Shown here: piece by piece, positions 1 to 52,025 of the stretch
Position numbering within the stretch: position 1 is the first letter of the stretch
Layout: each line of letters begins with the position of its first letter
IMG/VR virus record: IMGVR_UViG_3300045996_000592
Span: 1 to 64,000 of that record
Source: a virus
DNA: 64,000 bases
Direction: 5' to 3' (one strand)
Translations under genes and position numbers: made by a program
The notes under the pieces: model-generated
Told to the model about the DNA's origin: nothing
Database searches by the model: none
The model's input: only the letters and a program-made list of their open reading frames with translations

Positions 1-165
1 GGGCTCAAGTGAGGGATCAAGTGGGGGCTCAAGTGAGGGCTCAAGTGAGGGATCAAGTGGGGGCTCAAGTGTGGGCTCAAGTGAGGGCTCAAGTGTGGGC
101 TCAAGTGGGGGCTCAAGTGAGGGATCAAGTGGGGGCTCAAGTGAGGGATCAAGTGGGGGCTCAAA
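1..165 (+). repeat. In-frame 12-bp tandem repeat (G[C/A]TCAAGTG[A/G/T]GG) encoding [A/D]QV[R/G/W]
   Basis: About 13 consecutive units visible from the window start; the array likely extends upstream. Confidence 0.95.
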
Positions 166-878
166 AACTGGAAACATTCTCATTTGCATCTTATGGTTCT
201 ATTTACGATTACGGGTGGGTGTCATTTTTTGATTTTTTCACGCAGATCGGGATAATAAACCATAAAGGGTTTAATGAGTTTCAGGAACTTATTAGTTCAG
301 GAATATATGACATGATCCGGTTAAACGGATTCTGCATAGTATCCTCTCTGCCTACTAAGATCAGTCGTAACCCGGAGAACCAACTTCATAGTTCTGAGGG
401 AGCTGCCATAGAGTTCAAGGACGGGTACAAACAGTACTACCTGAATGGACGTAATATCCCAGACTGGGTTTTTGAAGAGTATGAGAGTAAGACCTTGACT
501 GTTGACAAGTTCAACAAAGAAGATAATGAGGATATCCGAGCCGGAATTATCACCCTGATAAAAGAACGGGAAGGAGCCGAAGGACTAATGAAGTTCTTAG
601 GATCTACCTGTATAGATGAGCAGATAGTTGTTCATAGCGGAGGGTATACCGAAACCCTACGTCTTTACAGGACAGATAAGAAATTCCCGGAATTACAGAA
701 CAGTAAGGGTGAGTTTGACCAGTCAGCAGCTTGGATAGAAATGAAGTGTCCTTCTACAGGACAGACGTACCTTATAGATACTTGCCCTACGTTTAATAAC
801 GCAGTAGAGTGTGCTAAGTGGCACAGACCTAAAGTAGTAACCTCTGATATCCCTTACATATGGGAGTCAGCCAATTAA
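9..878 (+). CDS. DUF6745-like phage protein with N-terminal tetrapeptide repeats (5' truncated by the window)
   Basis: QV-repeat region followed by LHSSEGAAIEFKDG..YYLNG and CPSTG motifs typical of this family. Confidence 0.7.
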   Translation: MRDQVGAQVRAQVRDQVGAQVWAQVRAQVWAQVGAQVRDQVGAQVRDQVGAQKLETFSFASYGSIYDYGWVSFFDFFTQIGIINHKGFNEFQELISSGIYDMIRLNGFCIVSSLPTKISRNPENQLHSSEGAAIEFKDGYKQYYLNGRNIPDWVFEEYESKTLTVDKFNKEDNEDIRAGIITLIKEREGAEGLMKFLGSTCIDEQIVVHSGGYTETLRLYRTDKKFPELQNSKGEFDQSAAWIEMKCPSTGQTYLIDTCPTFNNAVECAKWHRPKVVTSDIPYIWESAN

Positions 879-3468: not shown

Positions 3469-3852
3469 ATGATACAAAGAAAATCAGCAGTTCAGATAAT
3501 TCAGGAGACAATCGAGTACTACTCGGCAGACCCGGTAGGAAGGAGAGGTAAAAACGGGGGAGCCTGTGTGTACATTTCCGATGAAGGTGAAATGTGTGCA
3601 GTTGGCAGGTGTATGGAAGACCCTAATTTAGTATCTGCCCAGAATGTGTGCTCAAATATGGCCTTAAGTATAGGTGGTAAAGCTCCACTGGAAGAACTTC
3701 TTAAAGAAGAGTATCGCGGCCACCCGATTTCATTCTGGGGAAGTTTGCAAAGAATACATGACCAGGACGAGTACTGGTGTGAGGCTGGCCTGACTGAACT
3801 CGGTAGGACAAGGGTAACGCAGTTAATAGATTTTTACAAAAGTGAGGAATGA
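3469..3852 (+). CDS. Hypothetical protein
   Basis: C.Y...G.MCAVG and LQ.IHD motifs; start moved to ATG 3469. Confidence 0.65.
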   Translation: MIQRKSAVQIIQETIEYYSADPVGRRGKNGGACVYISDEGEMCAVGRCMEDPNLVSAQNVCSNMALSIGGKAPLEELLKEEYRGHPISFWGSLQRIHDQDEYWCEAGLTELGRTRVTQLIDFYKSEE

Positions 3853-4013
3853 CAGTAGAAGTAAAGAAGTTGAAGGCTGAGGTAGAATTAGCTAAGGCGC
3901 TTTATTTCAGCCTCAGGGACCGGTTAGAGGAAGCAGAGAAAAAGCAGATAAAGCCGGCAAAGAAGAGTGTCCCGAACAGGTTTATTACCCGGCAGCTGAA
4001 GAAGGCTAGTTAA
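3849..4013 (+). CDS. Small basic protein (54 aa) convergent with the integrase
   Basis: ATGA overlap with the upstream stop; MTVEVKKLKAE...RQLKKAS. Confidence 0.5.
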   Translation: MTVEVKKLKAEVELAKALYFSLRDRLEEAEKKQIKPAKKSVPNRFITRQLKKAS

Positions 4014-5187
4014 AAGGATTCTGTACTTTCTTTACCTGGTCATCTTTTCTGGACTTATGCTTCACATCATATACCCCTGTTATCATTTTTTCAGACTCGG
4101 CGTTCTGTAATGCCGCACCCTTAACACCTATTAGGTCGGAAGTCTCTGTAGTATTCAGGTGCTTTAATGGATAAAAGTTCTTATTTATTTTCAGTTTATC
4201 CTTTATGTGTCTTTTCCATCTCCTGTCGATCTGGGAACGATGAATAGGTTCTGGCCCGGGCAGCAGATCTTTAGAGAACACATAATAATTACCAGGACAG
4301 TTCCATAAAGCAGCTTGCCAGAAGGGGAGCGCTATATCTTTGATCGGTCTTATGGCCCAGGTGTAGTGCTTCCCTTTTAGTATTTGGTAGCGTACCTCTT
4401 GTTTAACCAGGTCTACATGCTCAGGTTTTATCTTAAGTAGCTCGGTAGACCGGGCGCCAGAGTGGAAGAAGATATGAAGATAGAGCCACCAGTTGATATC
4501 GTAGTCGAAGATGTATTCATCGACTCTCTTACGCTCTTCGGGGGTAAGCACATCCCGGGGCGCCGTAATAGTTTTCTGTTTTTTGAGTCCCTTACAGGGA
4601 TTACCGTTCGTAATTTCCAGTTCATCCAGGTACGAAAACAGTCCGGATAGGTTTTTACGATAACGGTTAAAGGTTGTAGCTGACTTACCCAGTGTAGCAG
4701 TATCCAGCAGTAGCTTTATATCCCGTCGGCGGACATCATAAATGGCCTTATCTTCTATTCCGAGTTCGATAGCTGCTGTCTTTATAAACCCCAGCGTACT
4801 CTTAAGCTCTACTCTGTATTCCCTGACCACCTTGACCTTATCTTTCGCGTATTCAAGGGCCTTGATAAAAGGAGTGGTCTCTGATATCCTACTGATGGGT
4901 TCTGTAGCAACCCGGGCGTATGTTTTAGTGATCGGGTTCCATCCCTTGTTGGTAAGGCGGTCTATCTCGAAAGCCAGAGCGTCCTTCAGCTGCCGGCGCC
5001 GCTCTTCCAGCGTATCTATCCGGTTGAAGTCACTGATGGATACCTGTTTGGATTTGCCGGTATTATCATCGTAGAACCGGTATCGGATAAGCCATTCCTC
5101 TTTCAGGAGTGCTTTACCGCCGGTCTCAAAATTCTTGGGGGAGATAAAAACCTTCCCCATTCGGTAATTATTCGGTAGATATTTCAT
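4006..5187 (-). CDS. int: Tyrosine recombinase / phage integrase
   Basis: SAM-like core-binding region (SATTFNRYR..L), NPC, HSGARSTEL (catalytic R), YPLKH, MITGVYD (catalytic Y); adjacent to a tRNA fragment. Confidence 0.9.
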   Translation of the reverse strand: MKYLPNNYRMGKVFISPKNFETGGKALLKEEWLIRYRFYDDNTGKSKQVSISDFNRIDTLEERRRQLKDALAFEIDRLTNKGWNPITKTYARVATEPISRISETTPFIKALEYAKDKVKVVREYRVELKSTLGFIKTAAIELGIEDKAIYDVRRRDIKLLLDTATLGKSATTFNRYRKNLSGLFSYLDELEITNGNPCKGLKKQKTITAPRDVLTPEERKRVDEYIFDYDINWWLYLHIFFHSGARSTELLKIKPEHVDLVKQEVRYQILKGKHYTWAIRPIKDIALPFWQAALWNCPGNYYVFSKDLLPGPEPIHRSQIDRRWKRHIKDKLKINKNFYPLKHLNTTETSDLIGVKGAALQNAESEKMITGVYDVKHKSRKDDQVKKVQNPFN

Positions 5188-5228
5188 ACTTTTACGGCAG
5201 ATAACACGCCAAAAGTAGCTGAAAAAAA

Positions 5229-5457
5229 CCGAACAAAAAACCGAACAAAAGGTTTAGGAAGAGGGCTAAAAATAGAAAAGTAGGTTACTTAAAGTATTGA
5301 TTATCAGCCGGCCCGGTAGCTCAGCTGGATAGAGCACCAGCCTTCTAAGCTGGGGGTCATTGGTTCGTTCAAACTTCTGAAACACAGTACTGATACCACT
5401 CCTAGGACTTATCTGTTACCTTACCACCCTGAATATCGAACAAAACTCCGAACGTTT
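5229..5457. mobile_element. Putative attP site
   Basis: CCGAACAAAA direct-repeat pair (5229-5250) and a degenerate pair (5436-5457) flank a tRNA fragment; IHF consensus AATCAA-TACT-TTA on the - strand at 5290-5302. Confidence 0.75.
5310..5367 (+). pseudogene. 5' fragment of tRNA-Arg(UCU), attP core
   Basis: GGCCCGG TAGCTCAGCTGGATAGAGCA CCAGC-CTTCTAA-GCTGG GGGTC ATTGG TTCG; no 3' T-stem or acceptor strand follows. Confidence 0.85.
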
Positions 5458-5906
5458 TAAGCAGCTTTATATCTTTCTCCGCTATTAATTCCCTGTAGAG
5501 TCGAATAGTGTATGCCGAGTTCTTTGGCTAACTGCCTTAAGGATGTGTCTCCTCTGTTTTTTAATGCTTCCCGGATTTCAGTAATCCTTTCCAAAGGAAT
5601 AGAGTTGTTATGGGCTGCCGCGATAAGTACCGAGGATCTTCCTTTTTTAAAGGCATCTTTCATATTATCTGAGTATGTTCCCAGAAAGAAATGATCTGGG
5701 TTAATACAGGCCCTATTATCACAGATGTGGCAAACAAGTAGCCCCGGCGGTATTACTCCACGGGTGAGCTCATAAGACAGTCGATGGGCACCAACCACTT
5801 TACCTTTATACCTAACGGCACCATATCCTGCACGTTTGGCACCCTGCCAGATCATACATTCATTTTCGTCAGTTATTGTTCTACTATATAATTTCTCTTT
5901 ATCCAT
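5457..5906 (-). CDS. HNH homing endonuclease (HNH_3-like) with C-terminal HTH
   Basis: C..WQG...GYG...AHRLSY...[20 protein letters not shown]. Confidence 0.9.
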
Positions 5907-5933
5907 ATGATAGGGAGTTTTTAGGTAGGATCA

Positions 5934-5965
5934 CTAATATAACGAAAAGTACCCTTAAACCCAAA
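5934..5965 (-). promoter_or_regulatory. Bacteroidota-type promoter toward HNH/int
   Basis: TTTG-N20-TATATTAG on the - strand. Confidence 0.5.
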
Positions 5966-6025
5966 AATCGACAACACCGAGTTGGCATGATTGTGTAATT
6001 AGTTTAGTAGTCCCCAGAACAGAAA

Positions 6026-6056
6026 TTAGGATTATTAATTAGAAGAAGTATATTTG
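6026..6056 (+). promoter_or_regulatory. Bacteroidota-type promoter
   Basis: TTAG-N19-TATATTTG (-33/-7 consensus TTTG...TAnnTTTG). Confidence 0.6.
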
Positions 6057-6097
6057 TTGGATGAATAAAAACCATATACTACTAAACTAATACCATC

Positions 6098-6439
6098 ATG
6101 AGTAAAGACGAAAAAAAGAACCAGGTAGCCCTACTTACCAAAGAAGGAAAGTCTATCGCGCAGATAGCTAAGACTACCGGTTTATCTAAAGCCACGGTAT
6201 CTAACTACCGGGCACTCCTTAAAGATGAAGGGGTTACGACCCCGAATATTAAGGGTAAACCCGGAGTTACAACAGCTCCCGGGGCTACACAGCGCCCACA
6301 AGGGACTAATAGTCCTCAGCAGTCATCATTTACCTCAGGTACCACCCGGTTTGTTATTGACGGTATATCCGTACAGCTGCCCCCAGGTTCCCGGATCAAG
6401 ATAATGCCTACTGGAGAAGTGGATATCAAGACCCATTAA
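6098..6439 (+). CDS. HTH DNA-binding protein, candidate regulator
   Basis: EGKSIAQIAKTTGLSKATVSNY HTH; has its own promoter and terminator, next to the integration module. Confidence 0.8.
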   Translation: MSKDEKKNQVALLTKEGKSIAQIAKTTGLSKATVSNYRALLKDEGVTTPNIKGKPGVTTAPGATQRPQGTNSPQQSSFTSGTTRFVIDGISVQLPPGSRIKIMPTGEVDIKTH

Positions 6440-6481
6440 AATTCTCCACTTATTTTTGGGGAACATAATACCCAAATACAG

Positions 6482-6513
6482 ACCTCGGTTTTATAACCGG
6501 GGTTTTTTATTTT
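6482..6513 (+). terminator. Intrinsic terminator
   Basis: ACCTCGGTT-loop-AACCGGGGT followed by a T-run. Confidence 0.7.
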
Positions 6514-6526
6514 ACCGGAAGATATT

Positions 6527-6568
6527 TTTGGATATCTGAATAATATAGGTTAAGTTTAGGATACCTAA
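6527..6568 (+). promoter_or_regulatory. Promoter overlapped by two 13-bp operator-like palindromes
   Basis: TTTG-N20-TAAGTTTA; TTTGG-ATA-TCTGA and TTAGG-ATA-CCTAA. Confidence 0.6.
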
Positions 6569-6591
6569 TAACCCCTAACCAACCCTATCTA

Positions 6592-6855
6592 ATGGTTATC
6601 CAATTGTTATCCGGTAAGATCGTGGAGATCTCCGTCGAGCAGTACCTGAATATGAGTGATGACGACTTTATCGCAGAGATGGAAGAAGTCGTCAGTTATA
6701 ATTATGGAGAATATGTGGAGGACCCCTTCTTCCGGTCCGCTATCTTCGGAACACCTGAGAAGAAGGAAGAAGATAATGAGCACGAGCCCTCACTGGATGA
6801 ACTGGGTTCCCTTGATAAGTTACGAGACCTGGACATAACCCTGTCAGAAGATTAA
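6592..6855 (+). CDS. Acidic hypothetical protein
   Basis: 87-aa, strongly D/E-rich ORF behind a promoter. Confidence 0.7.
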   Translation: MVIQLLSGKIVEISVEQYLNMSDDDFIAEMEEVVSYNYGEYVEDPFFRSAIFGTPEKKEEDNEHEPSLDELGSLDKLRDLDITLSED

Positions 6856-8422: not shown

Positions 8423-8604
8423 AGCATAACAGCAAAGACCTGTTTACCATACTCTCGGTCTCTAGTTTTATCATGTCCCTGGGGTCCGGGTACATGGTAA
8501 CCTTGGATTATGACCCGATTTTTACCCTGTTCACTGTATTATTCACCTTGGTTTTCGGTTTTTCACTCGGAACAGTAATAACACTGTACAGGTATGACCC
8601 CTAA
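8419..8604 (+). CDS. Small membrane protein (2 TM)
   Basis: Two hydrophobic stretches. Confidence 0.6.
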   Translation: MKHNSKDLFTILSVSSFIMSLGSGYMVTLDYDPIFTLFTVLFTLVFGFSLGTVITLYRYDP

Positions 8605-9013
8605 ACTAAAACAGTGTGCGGGTTGTAATGAACCACGGGTTATCTGGAAGAACCTTAACGGGTTGAAATACTGTAAAAACTGTATAGGGCAGATGGAACC
8701 AACAAACAGGAAGTCTAAGAAGAGGATACCTATCAGTCCTACGTCAGATAAACGGGAAAAACAGACCCGGGCCTATAATGTATTAGTAGCCATCTTTAAA
8801 AGGGATAATCCGGTTTGTAAGGCTCAACTACCCGGGGTCTGTACCGGAAAGACAGAGGACAACCACCACATGAAGGGTAAAGAGAACGAGCTCCTACTCG
8901 ATTCGCGATACTGGCTCCCTGTCTGTCGTGCCTGCCATGACTGGATAGGAATAAACAGCCAGCAGGCCATCGAAATGGGGTTATCAATCAGCAGGCATAA
9001 ACAAGCATCATGA
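8594..9013 (+). CDS. Zn-finger/HNH-like protein
   Basis: CxxC..CxxC N-terminus; C..QLPGVC...DNHH...VCRACHDWI. Confidence 0.7.
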   Translation: MTPKLKQCAGCNEPRVIWKNLNGLKYCKNCIGQMEPTNRKSKKRIPISPTSDKREKQTRAYNVLVAIFKRDNPVCKAQLPGVCTGKTEDNHHMKGKENELLLDSRYWLPVCRACHDWIGINSQQAIEMGLSISRHKQAS

Positions 9014-10034: not shown

Positions 10035-10763
10035 ATGTCAGTCACACAAGAGATTAAGAAAACCAAGAATTACGACCAGTTCCTATTGTTGGGAGGTAAC
10101 CGTAAAGTTGACCCGCGCCACGTAGCACGTCTGAAAGAAAGTATGTCTCAGGAGTACTTCATGTCCCCGATTCAGGTAAACGAGAAAATGGAGGTACTTG
10201 ATGGTCAACACCGCCTGGCTGCGTGTACAGAACTCGGGCTACCGGTTCACTACTTCGTATCAAAGGGCGGGAATCTACGTACAGTACAGGTACTCAACTC
10301 AAACAGTAAAGACTGGAAGATCGAAGACTATATGGAGAGCTATATCGAACAGGGAATAAAGGACTATCAAACCTACAAAGAGTTTTACCAGAGTTACGGG
10401 TTCAACCATAAGGTCTGCTTGATGCTGCTCTTGAACCGGGACGCATCTAACAGTGATGACCTGCGCGATTTTGCTGAGGGTAATTTCCGGATAAAATCAG
10501 TAGCTAAGGCTGCCGAGACTGCCGAAAAGATTAACCTCTGTGGCCAGCACTACGACGGGTTCAAGCGTAGGAATTTCATATTCGCCTTGATGAAGTGCCT
10601 GAAGAAACCTAAGTTCAACTTCGACGAGTTCCTGAAAAAACTCTCCTACCAGTCCCGCAAAATGGTTGACTGCTCCCAAGTAGAACAGTACCTCGAACTA
10701 ATTGAAGAGATCTACAACTTCAAAAGGAATAAGGGTGAGAAATTGGTTCTCAGGACTATCTGA
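10035..10763 (+). CDS. ParB/Srx N-terminal domain protein
   Basis: GNRKVD..HV..L..SM, PIQVN...VLDGQHRL. Confidence 0.85.
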   Translation: MSVTQEIKKTKNYDQFLLLGGNRKVDPRHVARLKESMSQEYFMSPIQVNEKMEVLDGQHRLAACTELGLPVHYFVSKGGNLRTVQVLNSNSKDWKIEDYMESYIEQGIKDYQTYKEFYQSYGFNHKVCLMLLLNRDASNSDDLRDFAEGNFRIKSVAKAAETAEKINLCGQHYDGFKRRNFIFALMKCLKKPKFNFDEFLKKLSYQSRKMVDCSQVEQYLELIEEIYNFKRNKGEKLVLRTI

Positions 10764-44807: not shown

Positions 44808-46361
44808 ATGTTTAAACCAAACGCTTTATACTACGTAGATGGGTATAAGATCGCTCATAAAAAGATGCTGGCAGCAGGTACCACCCGTCTATACGGAACC
44901 TGGATACCAAGGTCAGTAAAATATGCTCCTAAAGGAGTAAATAAGATAGTATCATTCGGTCAGCAGTTAATGGTACGCTGGCTGCACGATGAGTTCACGG
45001 AGAACTTTTTCAACCTTCCGGTAGATGTAGCTCACCGATTCGGTAAAGATATGTGCCTATACCTTGGGATGGACTACGACTACACGCACTTCACAGAACT
45101 GCATAATCTCGGTTATCTCCCAATCCGCATCAAATCATTACCAGAAGGAGTAGAAACTGATCCGAATATCCCACATATGACCTTCATTAATACTGTAGAC
45201 GGGTTTGGATGGCTTACTCTGTTCCTTGAAACTATCATTAGCGCCCTGGCGTGGAAGGCCCCGACTGCAGCCACTATTCAGAAACTCTATAACCGTAACA
45301 CTATGGAGTGGGTCACTAAAACCGATCCGGATAATTTATGGTTAGTACCGTTCCTTAACCATGATTTCAGCGCCCGCGGCCTTGATCCATTCTCGATGAT
45401 GGCAGTTGGTCTAGGCCATGCTACAAGTTCTTTGGGCTCAGATACACTCATAACCATCCCGGCTGCCCGTTATTATTATGACGAGCCCGAAGAGGAGGTC
45501 TGTGTGTTCTCTGTTAACGCCTCGGAACACTCAGTATCTACAACCAAAATATTTACAGTAGGGGAGCAGCAGATGATAGCAGACTGGTTACAGGATTTCC
45601 CGAAGGGAATACTATCTATTGTATCTGACACTTTCGACCTGTGGAAACTGATAACCGAGTACTTACCGGCCAATAAGGGATCCATTATGTCGAGGGAGGG
45701 TAAACTAGTCATACGTCCTGACAGTGGTGATCCGGTAGATATTATCTGCGGTTGTAAGGTTACTCAATCTGATGAAGATGAATTACTATATCGTGACCAG
45801 GATACATGGGAATCCTACCCGCCAGAAGAAGACATAGTTATTGTGAAACATAAGGTTGGTGCCAAGCCGGTATCTGAAGCGGAAAGCAAAGGGGTTATAG
45901 AAATCCTTTGGGATATATTCGGCGGTACTGTGAACACACACGGTTATAAAGTACTTGATCCTCATATTGGCGCCATCTATGGTGACTCGATAACTCCGGA
46001 CCGTCAGGTAGAAATCTATAAACGGTTAGCGGCTAAAAGGTTTGCTACTACCAACATCGTCTTGGGTATAGGGTCCTACACTTACCAGATGGTAACTCGT
46101 GATACACTAGGGTTTGCTGCTAAAGGCGCCTGGTTTGAGGCCAATGGTACGGGTTACGATATCTACAAGGATCCGGTGACAGATGATGGAACCAAAAAGT
46201 CACTAAAGGGGCTCATTAAAGTAAATCCCAACTTCACTGTTTGTACCCAATGTTCCCCGGAAGAGGAGTCAACCGGTTTACTCCAAACCATATATGAGAA
46301 CGGGCAGTATTATAACAAGACCACTTTAAAAGACGTCCGTAACAGACTTAAGAACATATGA
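44808..46361 (+). CDS. nadV: Nicotinamide phosphoribosyltransferase-like (NARP1 Namat-like)
   Basis: DGYK..H, HDFSARG, ASEHSV, SIVSDT, VIRPDSGDP, IYGDSIT, TRDT.GFA.K, KDPVTD. Confidence 0.92.
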   Translation: MFKPNALYYVDGYKIAHKKMLAAGTTRLYGTWIPRSVKYAPKGVNKIVSFGQQLMVRWLHDEFTENFFNLPVDVAHRFGKDMCLYLGMDYDYTHFTELHNLGYLPIRIKSLPEGVETDPNIPHMTFINTVDGFGWLTLFLETIISALAWKAPTAATIQKLYNRNTMEWVTKTDPDNLWLVPFLNHDFSARGLDPFSMMAVGLGHATSSLGSDTLITIPAARYYYDEPEEEVCVFSVNASEHSVSTTKIFTVGEQQMIADWLQDFPKGILSIVSDTFDLWKLITEYLPANKGSIMSREGKLVIRPDSGDPVDIICGCKVTQSDEDELLYRDQDTWESYPPEEDIVIVKHKVGAKPVSEAESKGVIEILWDIFGGTVNTHGYKVLDPHIGAIYGDSITPDRQVEIYKRLAAKRFATTNIVLGIGSYTYQMVTRDTLGFAAKGAWFEANGTGYDIYKDPVTDDGTKKSLKGLIKVNPNFTVCTQCSPEEESTGLLQTIYENGQYYNKTTLKDVRNRLKNI

Positions 46362-47314: not shown

Positions 47315-47547
47315 CAGAACAAGACATAATAGAATTCATAGAGTCCGGTCAGCCGGATATGGCTATCCTCGGGTACTTCCTGATGGACGTAGAAGATAAA
47401 TCCCCAGAAGCAGCCTACAACTACATAAAACCCATTTACGAAAAAGAGTTATCCCTGGCATTTACCAGGGATATTTTTATGGAGTACTTCAACAACCTCG
47501 TTGCCCGGGGCGCCATCTCAGAGGGACCGGATATTTCCGGTAATTAG
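47311..47547 (+). CDS. Hypothetical protein, last + strand gene
   Basis: Its stop overlaps the stop of the convergent large gene. Confidence 0.55.
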   Translation: MTEQDIIEFIESGQPDMAILGYFLMDVEDKSPEAAYNYIKPIYEKELSLAFTRDIFMEYFNNLVARGAISEGPDISGN

Positions 47548-50500
47548 AAGATGTGGAACTTGGTCTCCGTATCCAGGTTCAACCAGTCGTTATAGTTATG
47601 GATAAGGGGTAGCACATCCCGCCACTCCTTACTCATCTTACTCTGGTCTTTATAGGCGCCCTTCTGATAGATAGCGTCTTCTTCTGATTGGAACGGATAC
47701 TCTACTGTAGACATGATAGCTTCCGAGAAGTTCTTCAGGGTATTACTGATAGCTACCGGGTTCTTTACATACTCGTACATCTGTTTAACACCCAATACCG
47801 GATTAAAAGTAATAACTTCGGTACGTAACCTGTCCGTCTGGAATGACAGGAAGTGTACCAGTCTCTTGATACGATATTCATCATCAGGGATACCTTTAGC
47901 TAAATTACTGATCAGGGAATAAATGCCGAGTAAGGATATGATAAGTAGTATCTCCGAAAGATCCTGCATCAGGTTTTTCTTCTGTATGTCACTCATACTA
48001 CCCCACGCAGAAGTAACCCTTGACCAGTAACCGTCAAAATCACGGAGGGCTGAGAAGAACTTCACCGCTGTAACATATCTACCTTCGTACTCTCCCAGTG
48101 TCGCATGATCGTAACCACCGATAAACCGGGCGCGGAGAGCGGGGTAGATGTGTTTATGGAACTGTAATAACAGCTGTCCTACTGTATACTGCTGGAGCAT
48201 TACCCGGTCTTCCCAGGCATAGTTACCGTGGATGTGTTTATTTACCTCTTTGATATAGTTGGTGGCATTGAATTTCTCATCAGAAGACAGCTCAAACCCG
48301 TCTTTCAGTTTCAGCTCTCCGGTGTTCGGATTAAACTCGTAGGCATCATAGATAGACACCGACTCACCGGTCTTTTTATTCTTAATTTGGCGGGACATCA
48401 GTACCGCTAACCCTACCTTGCCTTGTACGTTATATTCACCGATCTCCTGACCAAGGTAAACCTTATCCATGAAGCTGACCCTACCCTGGTCCTCCTGCCA
48501 CTTGGTTATCATGTGGAAGCTGTCTATCAGGGCCTCTGCCTTACTGCCAGGTTTCCTGTTAGCGTAAGGGCCTTCTTTAGAGGAACCCAGTTTTTTAGCA
48601 AACCCGGGTAACAGTTCCGCGTTAAAGACTCCTTCCGCCCGGAAATAACTCTTACGGGAGAAGTACTTGTTAGCAGCCATCTCCAGCAGGTTATTCAACC
48701 TACCCATCGTGTAGTTGTTCAGGTTACCCTTGATGTTCAGGCCCACACCACGAAGAGACGTGATATTCTGTATCCTCTTAGCGATAATCTCCATCTGGGA
48801 GTGGGTCATAGTCTTATCGTTATAGAAGACCATGCTCAGGTAGGCGTTCAGGCGCTTTACCGTGTTCGGTAACTTGGTGTTCTTGTTCTTGGGGTCGTAG
48901 ATATAGGCCGGCTCGTCAGAACCTGCCTTGGTGATCACCTTCCCGGTAGCTGTTTTCTGGTAGTACTTACGGTTGATTACTGCGTCCTTGAGCGCCATGA
49001 TCTCCCCCTCTACTGCGGAAAGGTGAAGGAAGTTCTCGGCCATATCGGAGAACGCCAACATCTGTTTGAAGACATCCGTCTCCAGCTCAGAGTTCAGGGG
49101 TTTGGTGTTCTCCAGTCTTAGCTGCTCATTCAACTTCTTCCTCTCAGCCCTATATTCTTTCTGGCTGATCTTACCCTGTGCCTTCTGTTCGGCCAGCTCT
49201 TGTATTTTCTTCTGAAGGTTTTCCACCTTTTTCTGATTACGGAGATCCCCCATGTAGAGTTTGGGGATGACCTGCCGGGCGTTACCGGCCTCATCCGTAA
49301 CACGGGTAGAGCTAAAAGTCGTCGGGGTAAAGGAGTTGGTTATCCCACGTTTTACTACTGTCCACAGACCCTCGTTACGGGCTTGCTGTGTGAAGTTGGA
49401 CTGAAGGGTCATAAGACTTCCCTTTTTCAACCAGCGCTGCGCCGAAGGACCCATCCGGTTCGTATAACCCCCAATGATATCCATGTAGGCATTATATATC
49501 TCCTTCTGGAGTTTTCCGAGTTCTGAGGTCTGCCCCTGCAGGTCAACGTAACGCTTGTTACGCATGTCCTTACCCTTGGCTGAAAACTCCCTGATCTCGA
49601 TATGATCACGGTTCGGGAACCACCCGGTACGACGGGTAACAATACCAATTGGTTCTTTGGTTGTCCAGTCTTTGGCCATTTCCCAGTACTCCACGTATTC
49701 CTGGTATTTACGACGGAAAGAAGTATGTTCTGCCTCCGTGACATCAGGACGTTTTATCCATCTGCCGTTAATAAATTCTTCTACTTTACCTCTGGCGTCC
49801 TTGTATTCCTGTGTGTACTTATGATACTCGCCATCTTCGTAGGTCTCCCCGTTAGTGGACTCGGCTTCAGTGAATTTACGGACACGTTCCTTGATCTTGT
49901 ATAACTTACGGTTGTACTCAAGGTCTTTTGGATCAGCTGTGTGGATATCTGTTATCTGGATATATTCCATCAGTTTACCGTCATCGGTCCTTAACGCTGA
50001 ATACACCTCATCCCGGAGTTTCCAGTAATCCTGGGATATTTTCTGGAGCAGCCTAGTAGGGTTACCCTTGGCATCCAGCTCATACATGAAGTTAAAAGAG
50101 TCCTTATTCAGTTTACCTGCGAGTTTGGCGTAACGGTTACCTAACTGTTTGATACGTTCCTGTACGCCTTCCCGGGCCTCCTTACTGGTGAACATGGCCT
50201 TCTTGACACGGGTGTCGATAATACCCAGGAGTTTATCACGGGAACCGGCCAGGTCAGACGCCACATACTCGTGGAACTCTATGTCCTGGGCAGCCTCCAT
50301 CAGGTCTTCTATCTCCTTAGGGGTAAGATCAGGGTTTTGGTCTGATATCTTCTTGGTGACATACGTCCACGACTGCCGGGTGATATCATCGTTCAGGTTC
50401 TCCAGTGAGTCCAGCAGGTCTTCCAGCATCTTCTTCTGGTCATCGGTAACAAGGCCCCGGATCTTGGCAATACCCAGGTAGGAATCATTGAACTTGGCCA

Positions 50501-52025
50501 CCTCATCCAATATATGGTAATACTCCGGGCGGTCGTAGTTCTTCGGGTTATTTATAAACGCTGATATAATATTGGTCTCTTCCTGCGCGTAACGAATAAA
50601 CCTGCCATAAGCTGCTAACAGCCCACCCTTTTGTGTACGGAGCTCCGCTATGTCTGAGAGTAGTTCGTGTATCTTACTGATGGTCTCCTTACGTGGTATC
50701 AGGTTAGCCGAGTCTTCTGCCAGTGACTTGAAATAACCCAGACGGTCCTTGAAAATCTTCTCGATGTCATCCAGTGTGACAGAGAGTTTTTCTACCTGTG
50801 ACGCTGGTAACTCCGGCTCATCTGCTGTTACCTGTTCTTCCGAGAAAAACGTGCGGCTCTGGTAGTTATTATCCTTACCCCCGGTTGGTTCTTCAGATAT
50901 CACTTTGTTGATAAATTCTTCGTTAGCGCTGATCTCATGGATAATAACACCTTCTGTACCGAAGTCCTGTACCAGCTGCTCTACTTCTTCCCCCATTTTC
51001 AAGAGGATGTGGTAAGTCTCCGGCTCTTCAACATCAAGGTATCCCTGTAGCTGTATCAGTTTTGTGTAAACACCTACCTGTATACCTTGCTTCTGTACAC
51101 GATTAAGAACGCCACCGATACGGGAACCTTCCTTCACAGGATAAGCTGTGAACGCCTGGTTACTCTTTACCGAGTTCTTGGATGTCTTAAGGTCAATGAC
51201 CTTTATCCTCCCTTCAGGGCTGATCTTCACTATATCCATACTGCCGGCCACCCCTGATTTAGGATCACCAAGGGCTACCTGTGTCAAAAGTACAGAACCA
51301 TCCTTGGTCAGGTCTTCTACCAGCGCGGTAAAAAAGTCGTAGAACTTCTTACGTAAGGGCTCATTAAGAGCGGGGACGTCTGGTATCTCTTCCCCTTTTA
51401 TCACCGCCTGCAGGATACGGTCTATTGCGGTACCTATCTGGCGGGTGTGTTCGTACTGGGGTAATTGCTCCCCCTTACCTTCGATAGCCGTCGTAACCGA
51501 GGTGTATTCATTACCTTCAGAGTCAAAATAGACATGGCTCTCCGGTTCGAGGAATACAGGGTTCTTTGGGTTCAGTACCAGGTCATCTATGATCTGCTGC
51601 TGGACATGATTAGCCTGGCTCTGCTGGTATTTAGTATCTGCCTTCTTCTCTTCAGACAGGATCTCTGATACATTCTTTGGTAGTAGTTCCTTAGAGAGGA
51701 TAATATTCCGGAAGATATTAAACCGGGGTTCCCCGTTCTCATCCAACGTCATTTGTTTACGAAAGTCATTAAAGGAACTGAACTGCTCTTCCCACTCAGG
51801 GGTATAGGCCATAGACCACAGCCCTACAGCTATCTCGGGATCTGTCTTTCCCTTTATCGAACCATCCGACAGACGTTCCTGTAAGTACGGAACCTGTTCT
51901 ATGATGTCATCCAGCTTCTGGTTCTTCAGGAACTCAAGGAAATCACTATAGAGTATAGACGGTTGTTGGTTAGGCGCCAGTACTTTTTCTATCTTATTAT
52001 CTTTACGGTGGAGTTGACAGGTCAC
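47544..52025 (-). CDS. Large crAss-like virion cargo/ejection protein with PD-(D/E)xK domain
   Basis: TSVTT, GTAID, AGSMD..., VIDLKTS, Q...Y; C-terminal hydrophobic helix; downstream of the vRNAP. Confidence 0.8.
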   Translation of the reverse strand: MTCQLHRKDNKIEKVLAPNQQPSILYSDFLEFLKNQKLDDIIEQVPYLQERLSDGSIKGKTDPEIAVGLWSMAYTPEWEEQFSSFNDFRKQMTLDENGEPRFNIFRNIILSKELLPKNVSEILSEEKKADTKYQQSQANHVQQQIIDDLVLNPKNPVFLEPESHVYFDSEGNEYTSVTTAIEGKGEQLPQYEHTRQIGTAIDRILQAVIKGEEIPDVPALNEPLRKKFYDFFTALVEDLTKDGSVLLTQVALGDPKSGVAGSMDIVKISPEGRIKVIDLKTSKNSVKSNQAFTAYPVKEGSRIGGVLNRVQKQGIQVGVYTKLIQLQGYLDVEEPETYHILLKMGEEVEQLVQDFGTEGVIIHEISANEEFINKVISEEPTGGKDNNYQSRTFFSEEQVTADEPELPASQVEKLSVTLDDIEKIFKDRLGYFKSLAEDSANLIPRKETISKIHELLSDIAELRTQKGGLLAAYGRFIRYAQEETNIISAFINNPKNYDRPEYYHILDEVAKFNDSYLGIAKIRGLVTDDQKKMLEDLLDSLENLNDDITRQSWTYVTKKISDQNPDLTPKEIEDLMEAAQDIEFHEYVASDLAGSRDKLLGIIDTRVKKAMFTSKEAREGVQERIKQLGNRYAKLAGKLNKDSFNFMYELDAKGNPTRLLQKISQDYWKLRDEVYSALRTDDGKLMEYIQITDIHTADPKDLEYNRKLYKIKERVRKFTEAESTNGETYEDGEYHKYTQEYKDARGKVEEFINGRWIKRPDVTEAEHTSFRRKYQEYVEYWEMAKDWTTKEPIGIVTRRTGWFPNRDHIEIREFSAKGKDMRNKRYVDLQGQTSELGKLQKEIYNAYMDIIGGYTNRMGPSAQRWLKKGSLMTLQSNFTQQARNEGLWTVVKRGITNSFTPTTFSSTRVTDEAGNARQVIPKLYMGDLRNQKKVENLQKKIQELAEQKAQGKISQKEYRAERKKLNEQLRLENTKPLNSELETDVFKQMLAFSDMAENFLHLSAVEGEIMALKDAVINRKYYQKTATGKVITKAGSDEPAYIYDPKNKNTKLPNTVKRLNAYLSMVFYNDKTMTHSQMEIIAKRIQNITSLRGVGLNIKGNLNNYTMGRLNNLLEMAANKYFSRKSYFRAEGVFNAELLPGFAKKLGSSKEGPYANRKPGSKAEALIDSFHMITKWQEDQGRVSFMDKVYLGQEIGEYNVQGKVGLAVLMSRQIKNKKTGESVSIYDAYEFNPNTGELKLKDGFELSSDEKFNATNYIKEVNKHIHGNYAWEDRVMLQQYTVGQLLLQFHKHIYPALRARFIGGYDHATLGEYEGRYVTAVKFFSALRDFDGYWSRVTSAWGSMSDIQKKNLMQDLSEILLIISLLGIYSLISNLAKGIPDDEYRIKRLVHFLSFQTDRLRTEVITFNPVLGVKQMYEYVKNPVAISNTLKNFSEAIMSTVEYPFQSEEDAIYQKGAYKDQSKMSKEWRDVLPLIHNYNDWLNLDTETKFHIF

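Follow-up and report, generated by a model that had tools for sequence, protein, structure and literature searches.

A candidate phage attachment site with the 5' part of tRNA-Arg(UCU) beside a tyrosine integrase gene in a distantly crAss-like soil phage

The integrase gene and its attachment site

The stretch of DNA analysed here (the window, 64,000 nt) comprises bases 1-64000 of a 134,155-bp IMG/VR virus record, IMGVR_UViG_3300045996_000592, which is free of Ns and has 46% G+C. The locus under study lies near the start of the window and consists of a tyrosine integrase gene (int) of 393 codons on the minus strand (4006..5187) and, 122 nt from it, a 58-nt piece of a tRNA-Arg(UCU) gene on the plus strand (5310..5367), which is enclosed by two pairs of short repeats and appears to form the centre of a phage attachment site (attP). 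A preliminary description made from the sequence had read this arrangement as the integration module of a temperate crAss-like phage. Judged by its proteins, the record is a large soil phage that is distantly crAss-like, and this is the only label claimed for it. Three of its virion and packaging proteins, i.e., the portal, the large terminase and the major head protein, have homologues among the PHROG families (phrog_6681, phrog_6547 and phrog_11589), as expected of a crAss-like phage. A tblastn search with the large terminase (TerL) matched 117 phage records, and all of those listed were crAss-like, i.e., uncultured cr phages, Bacteroides crAss001 and crAssBcn, and Flavobacterium, Cellulophaga and Azobacteroides phages. 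The earlier assignment holds in the form of a distant relationship, because the TerL identity to these phages was only 23-25%.

The claim of an intact tyrosine recombinase is borne out by several analyses. The open reading frame (ORF) is uninterrupted, and the protein matches the integrase family phrog_1 at E 3.7e-22. A phmmer search against the PDB gave merely weak matches to SSV-type integrases (E 0.02), and a fold search was used instead. An AlphaFold 2 (AF2) model built on 19 family sequences, with a mean confidence score (pLDDT) of 87.3, was searched with Foldseek, which returned 51 PDB matches at E <= 0.001. The top ones were all tyrosine recombinases, and the best were full-length chains of the lambda integrase (lambda Int; 1z1g_B, E 2.6e-10), with a sequence identity of 14-16%. 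The alignments to full-length lambda Int spanned 355-404 columns and included the N-terminal arm-binding domain. In the model, the protein is shown to have three lambda-Int-like domains, the arm-binding domain among them. The proposed active-site residues are R246, K271, Y339, K342, E364 and Y373; the last of these, the C-terminal nucleophile, is invariant in 19/19 and 77/77 sequences with a residue in that column. When positions shared by 17 or more of the 18 relatives from bacterial genomes (described below) were counted, the integrase kept 36 of 41, and the same count for each of these relatives gave 35-39 of about 40-44.

The tRNA piece corresponds to positions 1-58 of tRNA-Arg(UCU) and is taken as the identity block of the attP, since 58 of its 58 bases match a chromosomal gene of Chitinophagaceae. 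Identity begins at tRNA position 1 and stops after the TTCG of the T-loop (in our own numbering), which confirms the extent given in the preliminary description; past this point the hosts read on as AATCCAATCCGGGTCA and the phage as TTCAAACTTC. No tRNA was called in the window by ARAGORN, and with the Rfam tRNA model, for which the gathering score is 29, the piece reached 29.1 bits in an alignment to positions 7-64 of the 71 in the model. The fragment has the signature used in the Islander survey, i.e., identity to the target tRNA gene that reaches one end of the tRNA. Neither a tRNA-Arg gene nor a second copy or remainder of the 58-nt fragment was found elsewhere in the phage genome, and an element inserted in a tRNA gene of the phage itself was rejected for this reason.

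Comparison of the tRNA with bacterial genomes had been proposed as a means of naming the host. When a 43-nt core of it was scanned against one genome per GTDB species, 62 loci were obtained, 27 of them Burkholderiaceae-type, with the core alone in common, and 35 from Bacteroidota, which, where named, belonged to Flavipsychrobacter, Taibaiella, Chitinophagaceae or Chitinophagales. All 58 bases agree in 21 of the 35 Bacteroidota loci, and the other 14 differ by one base in the acceptor stem. The gene was present as a single copy with 100% identity in all five host-like genomes checked, where the other matches were 75-85% identical over the full range, plus one of 96% over 24 nt. These matches point to a Flavipsychrobacter- or Taibaiella-like member of Chitinophagaceae as the likely host.

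Repeat pairs on both sides of the tRNA piece had also been noted before, and they were recovered here. In the arm proximal to int, the 10-nt motif CCGAACAAAA occurs twice with a period of 12 (5229..5250, plus strand), at -117/-105 from the centre of the anticodon. The distal arm holds TCGAACAAAA-CT-CCGAAC, again with a period of 12 (5436..5453, plus strand), at +90/+102. Exact copies of CCGAACAAAA are found in the window only at 5229 and 5241; a copy with one mismatch lies at 5436, followed by CCGAAC at 5448. With up to one mismatch allowed, eight copies were observed in the window against 4.43 expected, and three of the eight fall inside 217 nt. All the arm repeats are oriented in the direction of the tRNA. 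They are described as arm-type sites, candidates for binding by the integrase. Both pairs are centred on the anticodon stem-loop CCAGC-CTTCTAA-GCTGG (5337..5353, plus strand), which is proposed as the core in which crossover would take place. Since the identity ends at the T-loop, a crossover at that border was also considered; it was ranked below the anticodon loop because the arm pairs, as well as the tRNA fragments displaced by related elements, centre on the latter.

A palindrome, TGATTATCA (5298..5306), overlaps the sequence 5290-5302 that had been described as a consensus site for the integration host factor (IHF). That pattern is indeed present, but it occurs four times in the window (both strands), which is near chance, and its consensus is that of E. 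coli, of unproven relevance to Bacteroidota; the IHF reading was not retained. What the sister phages described below conserve instead is the palindrome, which flanks the tRNA piece in their attP too. It has just two copies in the 134-kb genome, and the motif was seen in loci L168-L170, L181, L187 and L220.

Attachment sites of related integrases and of sister phages

Relatives of the integrase were collected from a sample of 401 Chitinophagaceae genomes, 26 of which had homologues (33 loci), and from IMG/VR, where 78 viral loci were found with a family alignment (A1). The alignment was needed because the integrase as a single-protein query retrieved no relative from IMG/VR. In 24 of the 33 genomic loci an intact tRNA gene lies 90-130 nt upstream of the int ATG and in the same direction as int. 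The targets are tRNA-Lys, -Met, -Val, -His, -Arg-TCT, -Arg-ACG, -Gly, -Ala and -Gln, with tRNA-Arg(TCT) used in three distinct places. The divergent layout of the phage was found in none of the 33 Chitinophagaceae loci. One of the genomes, a 2.2-Mb Chitinophagaceae metagenome-assembled genome (MAG; G179), has four integrase homologues on separate short contigs (C67, C77, C173 and C284), which are probably binned fragments of phages or islands.

In five integrated copies the displaced tRNA fragment could be located 43-50 kb away. Four of these fragments cover tRNA positions 15-76, 33-75, 32-76 and 28-75, i.e., they begin at position 28-33 or earlier and reach the 3' end; in the fifth, the exact stretch is 15-49 only. 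Because the displaced fragments run to the 3' end, the integrase family appears, from these sequences, to be one that carries the 3' part of the tRNA, in a block that extends back to the anticodon loop. The preliminary description had stated that tRNA-targeting integrases usually carry the 3' part, and this is true of all relatives examined here. The same was seen in a motif test, in which a T-loop motif on the int strand was set against a D-loop motif on the opposite strand in all loci for which upstream flank was available, 27 of them genomic and 53 viral. The T-loop motif on the int strand was present in 19/27 genomic and 44/53 viral loci; the D-loop motif on the opposite strand, which is the arrangement of the attP of the phage, was found in 0/27 and 0/53.

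The relatives also possess arm pairs. On the int side the pair is a tandem repeat with a period of 12-13 that directly precedes the int start codon (ATG); counted from the centre of the anticodon, it lies at +96 to +128. The pair of the other arm, with the same motif and orientation, lies at about -119/-107 in G118; the repeat of G183 is at -99/-87, and in G328 and G162 the pair was judged by eye only. The orientation of the pairs is the same in 4/4 integrated relatives, and the motif varies between elements. Read in the frame of the tRNA, the phage site thus has the full two-armed attP anatomy of the integrase family. It differs in two respects: int is located past the upstream arm and faces away, and the identity block covers positions 1-58 instead of about 28-76. 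Relative to int, the whole attP would therefore be inverted in comparison with every relative examined, with the identity block shifted to the 5' end of the tRNA.

A second comparison was made with sister phages. TerL homologues with 58-60% identity were found in four IMG/VR records (G406, G407, G409 and G410), one of which is 127.7 kb long and 99% complete. Against this long record, G407, 54 phage ORFs were matched, and the order of the matches was collinear. Two further records, G408, which has no TerL match, and that of locus L220, in which TerL was not searched, were assigned to the clade through a helicase search. In G406, G407, G408 and the L220 record, the genomes are collinear, and an integrase gene stands at the same place, divergent from a conserved gene for a helix-turn-helix (HTH) protein and the other early genes, with the att site in between. 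This conserved position and gene orientation support the view that the site of the phage under study is an attP. The attP of the sisters corresponds to positions ~27-76 of tRNA-Val(TAC) in the direction of int, so that they differ from the phage in the carried part and its direction; the HNH gene that adjoins the site in the phage (see below) is also missing in them. Their attP is flanked by inverted repeats of 18-20 nt, GTAAC...TGAT(T/A)ATCA (L168-L170, L181, L187), and these repeats could possibly be sites of accessory proteins. The integrases of the sisters have 289 aa and are without the arm-binding domain, with the only exception being that of L220.

Some members of the clade without an integrase have tRNA genes of their own. 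In L226 (9765-9971), L227 (795-956) and L228 (1307-1468), a tRNA-Arg(TCT) and a tRNA-Leu(TAA) gene lie just upstream of the helicase gene, so that the same isoacceptor is supplied by some members of the clade and targeted by another. These tRNA-Arg(TCT) genes differ widely from the 58-nt piece.

Possible function of the site and alternative explanations

Based on the results above, the site is probably the attP of a lysogeny module that works, or did so until very recently, and the phage would then be capable of lysogeny. The strongest single argument is that the block starts at tRNA position 1. Such a start would be expected under selection for a working rebuilt gene, and the site should therefore be in use now or have been so recently. 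During integration, the N-terminal domain of the integrase would bind the arm pairs and its core-binding domain the anticodon stem, and the strand exchange with the host's tRNA-Arg(UCU) gene would take place at the anticodon loop or close to it. The two junctions would not be alike, since it is the 5' part of the tRNA that the phage brings along. At the junction on the int side, an intact tRNA composed of phage positions 1 to about 35 and host positions about 36 to 74 would lie behind phage DNA, whereas at the far junction the host promoter would drive a tRNA cut at position 58 and read into the prophage. As the gene is single-copy in all five host-like genomes, the rebuilt copy would have to be expressed from the DNA on the phage side, and it may depend on phage transcription.

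The preliminary description had further proposed that integration would part int from a promoter at 5934-5965. This is not supported. A perfect copy of the Bacteroidota -7 box consensus, TAnnTTTG, is present as TACTTTTG (5210..5217, minus strand), 22 nt upstream of the int ATG, and is a candidate promoter of int. Wherever in the block a crossover fell, this box would stay with int, which would thus keep a promoter-like box of its own. The frequency of TAnnTTTG in the phage genome is about 0.2 per kb per strand. The promoter at 5934-5965 was not recovered by a sigma-70 scan, and no perfect Bacteroidota -7 box occurs there. The scan itself, for sigma-70 promoters and terminators over 3800-6700, gave results at chance level and was set aside, sigma-70 being the wrong promoter type for Bacteroidota.

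Several results weigh against a working module. In the 150 nt upstream of the tRNA piece, no perfect TAnnTTTG is found on its strand, only TACTTTTA at -115; over the same distance, 29 of the 35 host loci have a perfect box. The phage arm thus offers no recognisable promoter from which a rebuilt tRNA could be transcribed. The module also seems to be dispensable: among 26 loci of the clade collected via the helicase, 15 have at least 7 kb of sequence upstream, and an integrase is found in only 4 of these 15. As for the integrase, it scored 16.9 bits with the Pfam model Phage_integrase, under the cut-off of 27.1, and its active site appears to be non-canonical. Between H308, R311, H333 and Y342 of lambda Int, the spacings (3, 22 and 9) are the same as in the phage protein, and Y339, K342 and E364 would thus occupy the places of H308, R311 and H333. 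Tyr and Lys at 339 and 342 are usual in the family, each occurring in 75/77 viral relatives. Position 364, Glu here, is His in 18/18 genomic and 74/77 viral relatives. As a more general observation, the whole Bacteroidota family has, judged by spacing, Tyr and Lys at the places of H308 and R311 and yet integrates, an atypical active site for tyrosine recombinases.

The integrated form was searched for as well. Phage arms were found at the chromosomal tRNA in 0/62 GTDB loci. The exact P'-junction pattern had no match in IMG/VR, and neither a P'-junction pattern nor that of the predicted right-hand junction (attR) was found in JGI metagenome contigs; the IMG/VR and JGI scans were exact-match scans, from which the window's own record was possibly excluded. 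A prophage of the clade was sought via TerL, with one weak match in 401 Chitinophagaceae genomes (30%, on short contig C13 of the MAG G179) and none in 401 Chitinophagales genomes. All these searches were samples or exact-match scans and do not by themselves establish absence. The check for the left and right junctions (attL and attR) or integrated genomes that the preliminary description had called for was thus negative in the GTDB loci, IMG/VR, JGI contigs, two Logan runs and 802 genomes. Its claim of a temperate phage stands as far as the integrase and the attP are concerned; the prophage and its junctions were not found, and lysogeny is a conclusion from the module.

These points could indicate that the lysogeny module is decaying, i.e., that a formerly normal attP was rearranged, lost the tRNA's 3' end and became inverted relative to int, so that integration would no longer occur or would kill the tRNA. 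We consider this unlikely. It would agree with the integrated form being found nowhere searched, with the lack of a recognisable promoter for the rebuilt tRNA on the phage arm, with the absence of the module from 11 of the 15 clade loci with enough flank, with E364 at a nearly invariant His position, and with the HNH gene beside the site, where the sisters have none. However, a block identical at 58/58 bases to genes of living hosts, starting from tRNA position 1, is expected only if it functions within a tRNA gene. The arm pairs, both of them intact, have the spacing of the family, and the integrase ORF is open, conserved like those of its relatives and unchanged in two sequencing runs. Moreover, Glu at position 364 also occurs in the viral relative nearest to the phage integrase, L122 (42% identity), whose attP is of the ordinary 3' type, on tRNA-Gly.

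The negative prophage searches could also be explained if the recombinase served plasmid-like maintenance, such as multimer resolution by Cre at loxP in P1, instead of chromosomal integration. A gene for a ParB-like protein (10035-10763, plus strand; phrog_12305, E 5.6e-35) lies 5 kb from int and recalls the phage-plasmid lifestyle that has been proposed for the prototypic crAssphage (PMC10983915). This explanation is nevertheless improbable, since a resolution site needs no 58-nt identity to a host tRNA gene, the layout of the arm-type sites matches an integrative attP, and the integrase family adjoins chromosomal tRNA genes, with displaced fragments 43-50 kb off. Still less probable is that the 58 nt are the remnant of a tRNA-Arg(UCU) once encoded by the phage and unrelated to integration. 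Three clade loci (L226-L228) do have a full tRNA-Arg(TCT) of their own, and four other tRNA genes are present in the phage genome at 120-121 kb; but the tRNA-Arg genes of the three clade loci show many differences from the piece whereas the Chitinophagaceae chromosomal genes are identical to it, the genes of L226-L228 adjoin the helicase and not int, and the piece is placed exactly between the two arm pairs, 122 nt from int.

A chimeric contig at the site was considered as well. Logan contigs (k=31) from two soil runs, both of which are perhaps sources of the record, break within the tRNA block and overlap there at 5328-5356, and the 5.2-kb segment on the left has a repeat at either border, the tRNA block at one and a tandem array at the other, as might be expected if unrelated contigs had been joined through a tRNA core. 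However, the Logan contigs cover both sides of the block with zero differing letters, and the depth on the two sides is equal in both runs (20.5 and 20.9 in the first; 7.3 against 5.1-8.6 in the second). The order int, attP, HTH gene and early genes is found in four related contigs, and the arm-site motif is present on both sides of the block. Because of the synteny with the sisters, the equal depth and the absence of differing letters, a chimera is the least credible of the explanations considered, at most a slight chance. Loose Logan ends at 5367 belong to tRNAs of other organisms, with four differing letters, and are silent on attL and attR.

The last ~107 bases of the contig duplicate window positions 165-271, i.e., its end overlaps its start, and the contig begins and ends within a tandem array of a 12-nt unit, GGGCTCAAGTGA. 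This indicates an assembly that is either circular or terminally redundant and whose break falls at the array, away from the att site. Together with this overlap, the synteny of int, attP and early genes with the sisters and the PHROG matches of ORFs to the left of int (phrog_8203, phrog_11079 and phrog_31716) agree with the earlier statement that phage genes lie on both sides and that the attP is an unintegrated one. The array occupies window positions 1-164 and the last ~400 bases of the record, and its copies differ between the two contig ends; it falls within an ORF (3-878) with a weak match to DUF6745 and is translated as the four-residue repeat AQV(R/G/W) or DQVG.

If the preferred reading as a working attP is followed further, a more elaborate scheme can be formulated, which we regard as quite unlikely in its entirety. 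In this scheme, the prophage would control the sole decoder of AGA through a rebuilt tRNA behind phage DNA that is without a normal host promoter, the tRNA promoter of the host would fire into the early genes and tie them to growth rate, and the tRNA half carried could be flipped within the integrase family and the phage clade. If it were true, the prophage would have a hold on host translation through the supply of tRNA-Arg(UCU); the truncated tRNA, ending at position 58 and free of a terminator, would let a strong host promoter read into the early-gene end; and an attP could switch the tRNA half it carries inside one integrase family and one phage clade.

Apart from this scheme, the site names a host, a Flavipsychrobacter- or Taibaiella-like member of Chitinophagaceae, for an uncultured phage. 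The persistence for which crAss-like phages are known does not involve classical lysogeny. A soil clade that would infect Chitinophagaceae-like Bacteroidota, and several members of which have int and an attP at one conserved position, makes integrative lysogeny testable in crAss-like phages. The mirror-image site may further be regarded as a natural experiment, in which the same protein family and arm layout are combined with the opposite half of the tRNA. It bears on the tolerance of integrases to a flipped core and on the fate of an essential single-copy tRNA that has phage DNA in place of its promoter.

Neighbouring genes and comparison with known systems

Between the attP and the conserved HTH gene, where the sister phages are free of genes, lies a gene on the minus strand (5457..5906) for a 149-aa HNH endonuclease with a C-terminal HTH (Pfam HNH_3 6.8e-10, HTH_3 0.002; phrog_1872 2.1e-31). 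From its domains and position it is probably an inserted gene of the homing type. A second HNH endonuclease gene is found in the early region at 8594-9013 (plus strand). The conserved HTH gene (6098-6439, plus strand) codes for a protein of 113 aa and is preceded by a perfect -7 box, TATATTTG (6049-6056), and it is a candidate early regulator. The protein has a counterpart of like build in the sisters (blastp to L181, 30% over 46 aa, E 0.017; L169 and L187 by eye). The HTH proteins encoded at 5457-5906 and 6098-6439 are the only repressor candidates for a temperate life.

Crass-like phages typically have giant virion proteins, and two large ORFs further away on the minus strand are candidates for these. 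One of 4300 aa extends from 53191 to the end of the window and on to 66093 of the record; it has no sequence match in the PDB or in PHROG, for which reason it is not put forward as a virion RNA polymerase, and is 37% identical to an ORF of the sister phage G407. The other (47544-52025) has 1493 aa. A nicotinamide phosphoribosyltransferase gene (44808-46361, plus strand; phrog_448, E 7.5e-149) represents an auxiliary metabolic gene. The four tRNA genes of the phage (Cys, Trp, Asp and Phe) are clustered on the minus strand at 120191-121329 of the record, outside the window.

The cultured Crassvirales (crAss001, crAssBcn and Cellulophaga phi14:2) and the epsilon crAss-like phages share with the phage a homologous TerL, portal and major head protein and a large genome, in which the phage has candidates for giant virion-type ORFs, and differ from it in that TerL is just 23-25% identical. 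The preliminary description had held that characterised Crassvirales mostly lack integration modules. This agrees with the literature, in which crAss001 and crAss002 are without lysogeny modules and integrases are noted in a subset of crAss-like phages (PMC9980608), and lysogeny in Crassvirales is called very rare (PMC10983915). For the epsilon crAss-like phages, a repressor and anti-repressors are described, with no att site reported (PMC11054128). The main texts searched contained no account of an attachment site for crAss-like phages.

Lambda Int, a heterobivalent tyrosine integrase that has arm-type and core-type sites, resembles the phage system in its three-domain fold, and its attP does so in that each arm holds tandem repeats of the arm type at a distance of ~90-120 nt from the core. 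The differences are the low identity of 14-16%, the Tyr, Lys and Glu that by spacing stand in place of H308, R311 and H333, and the target, which in the phage would be a tRNA anticodon stem-loop. Much closer are the integrases of Chitinophagaceae prophages or islands and of IMG/VR phages of 35-60 kb, which are 29-61% identical over the aligned parts, belong to the same family and have in common with the phage the pattern R-K-Y-K-(H)-Y, the layout of the arm pairs and tRNA genes as targets; the best match with a name is the integrase of Cellulophaga phage phi46:1 (31.8%). In these, the tRNA or its 3' part lies ~90-130 nt upstream in the direction of int, whereas the phage has the 5' part in the opposite direction.

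The carriage of a 5' part has its precedent in genomic islands. In Table 1 of the Islander survey, 5' tRNA fragments are listed for 159 of 3919 islands and 3' fragments for 3760 (PMC4383910). In the former, as would be the case for the phage, the element supplies the 5' part of the tRNA, so that the intact copy stands behind DNA of the element and the copy at the host promoter is truncated. Unlike these islands, the phage is known as a free attP only, and all of its relatives examined use the 3' part. What is new is therefore a complete-looking mirror-image tRNA attP in a soil crAss-like clade whose sisters have ordinary ones, the 5'-part type itself having already been recorded.

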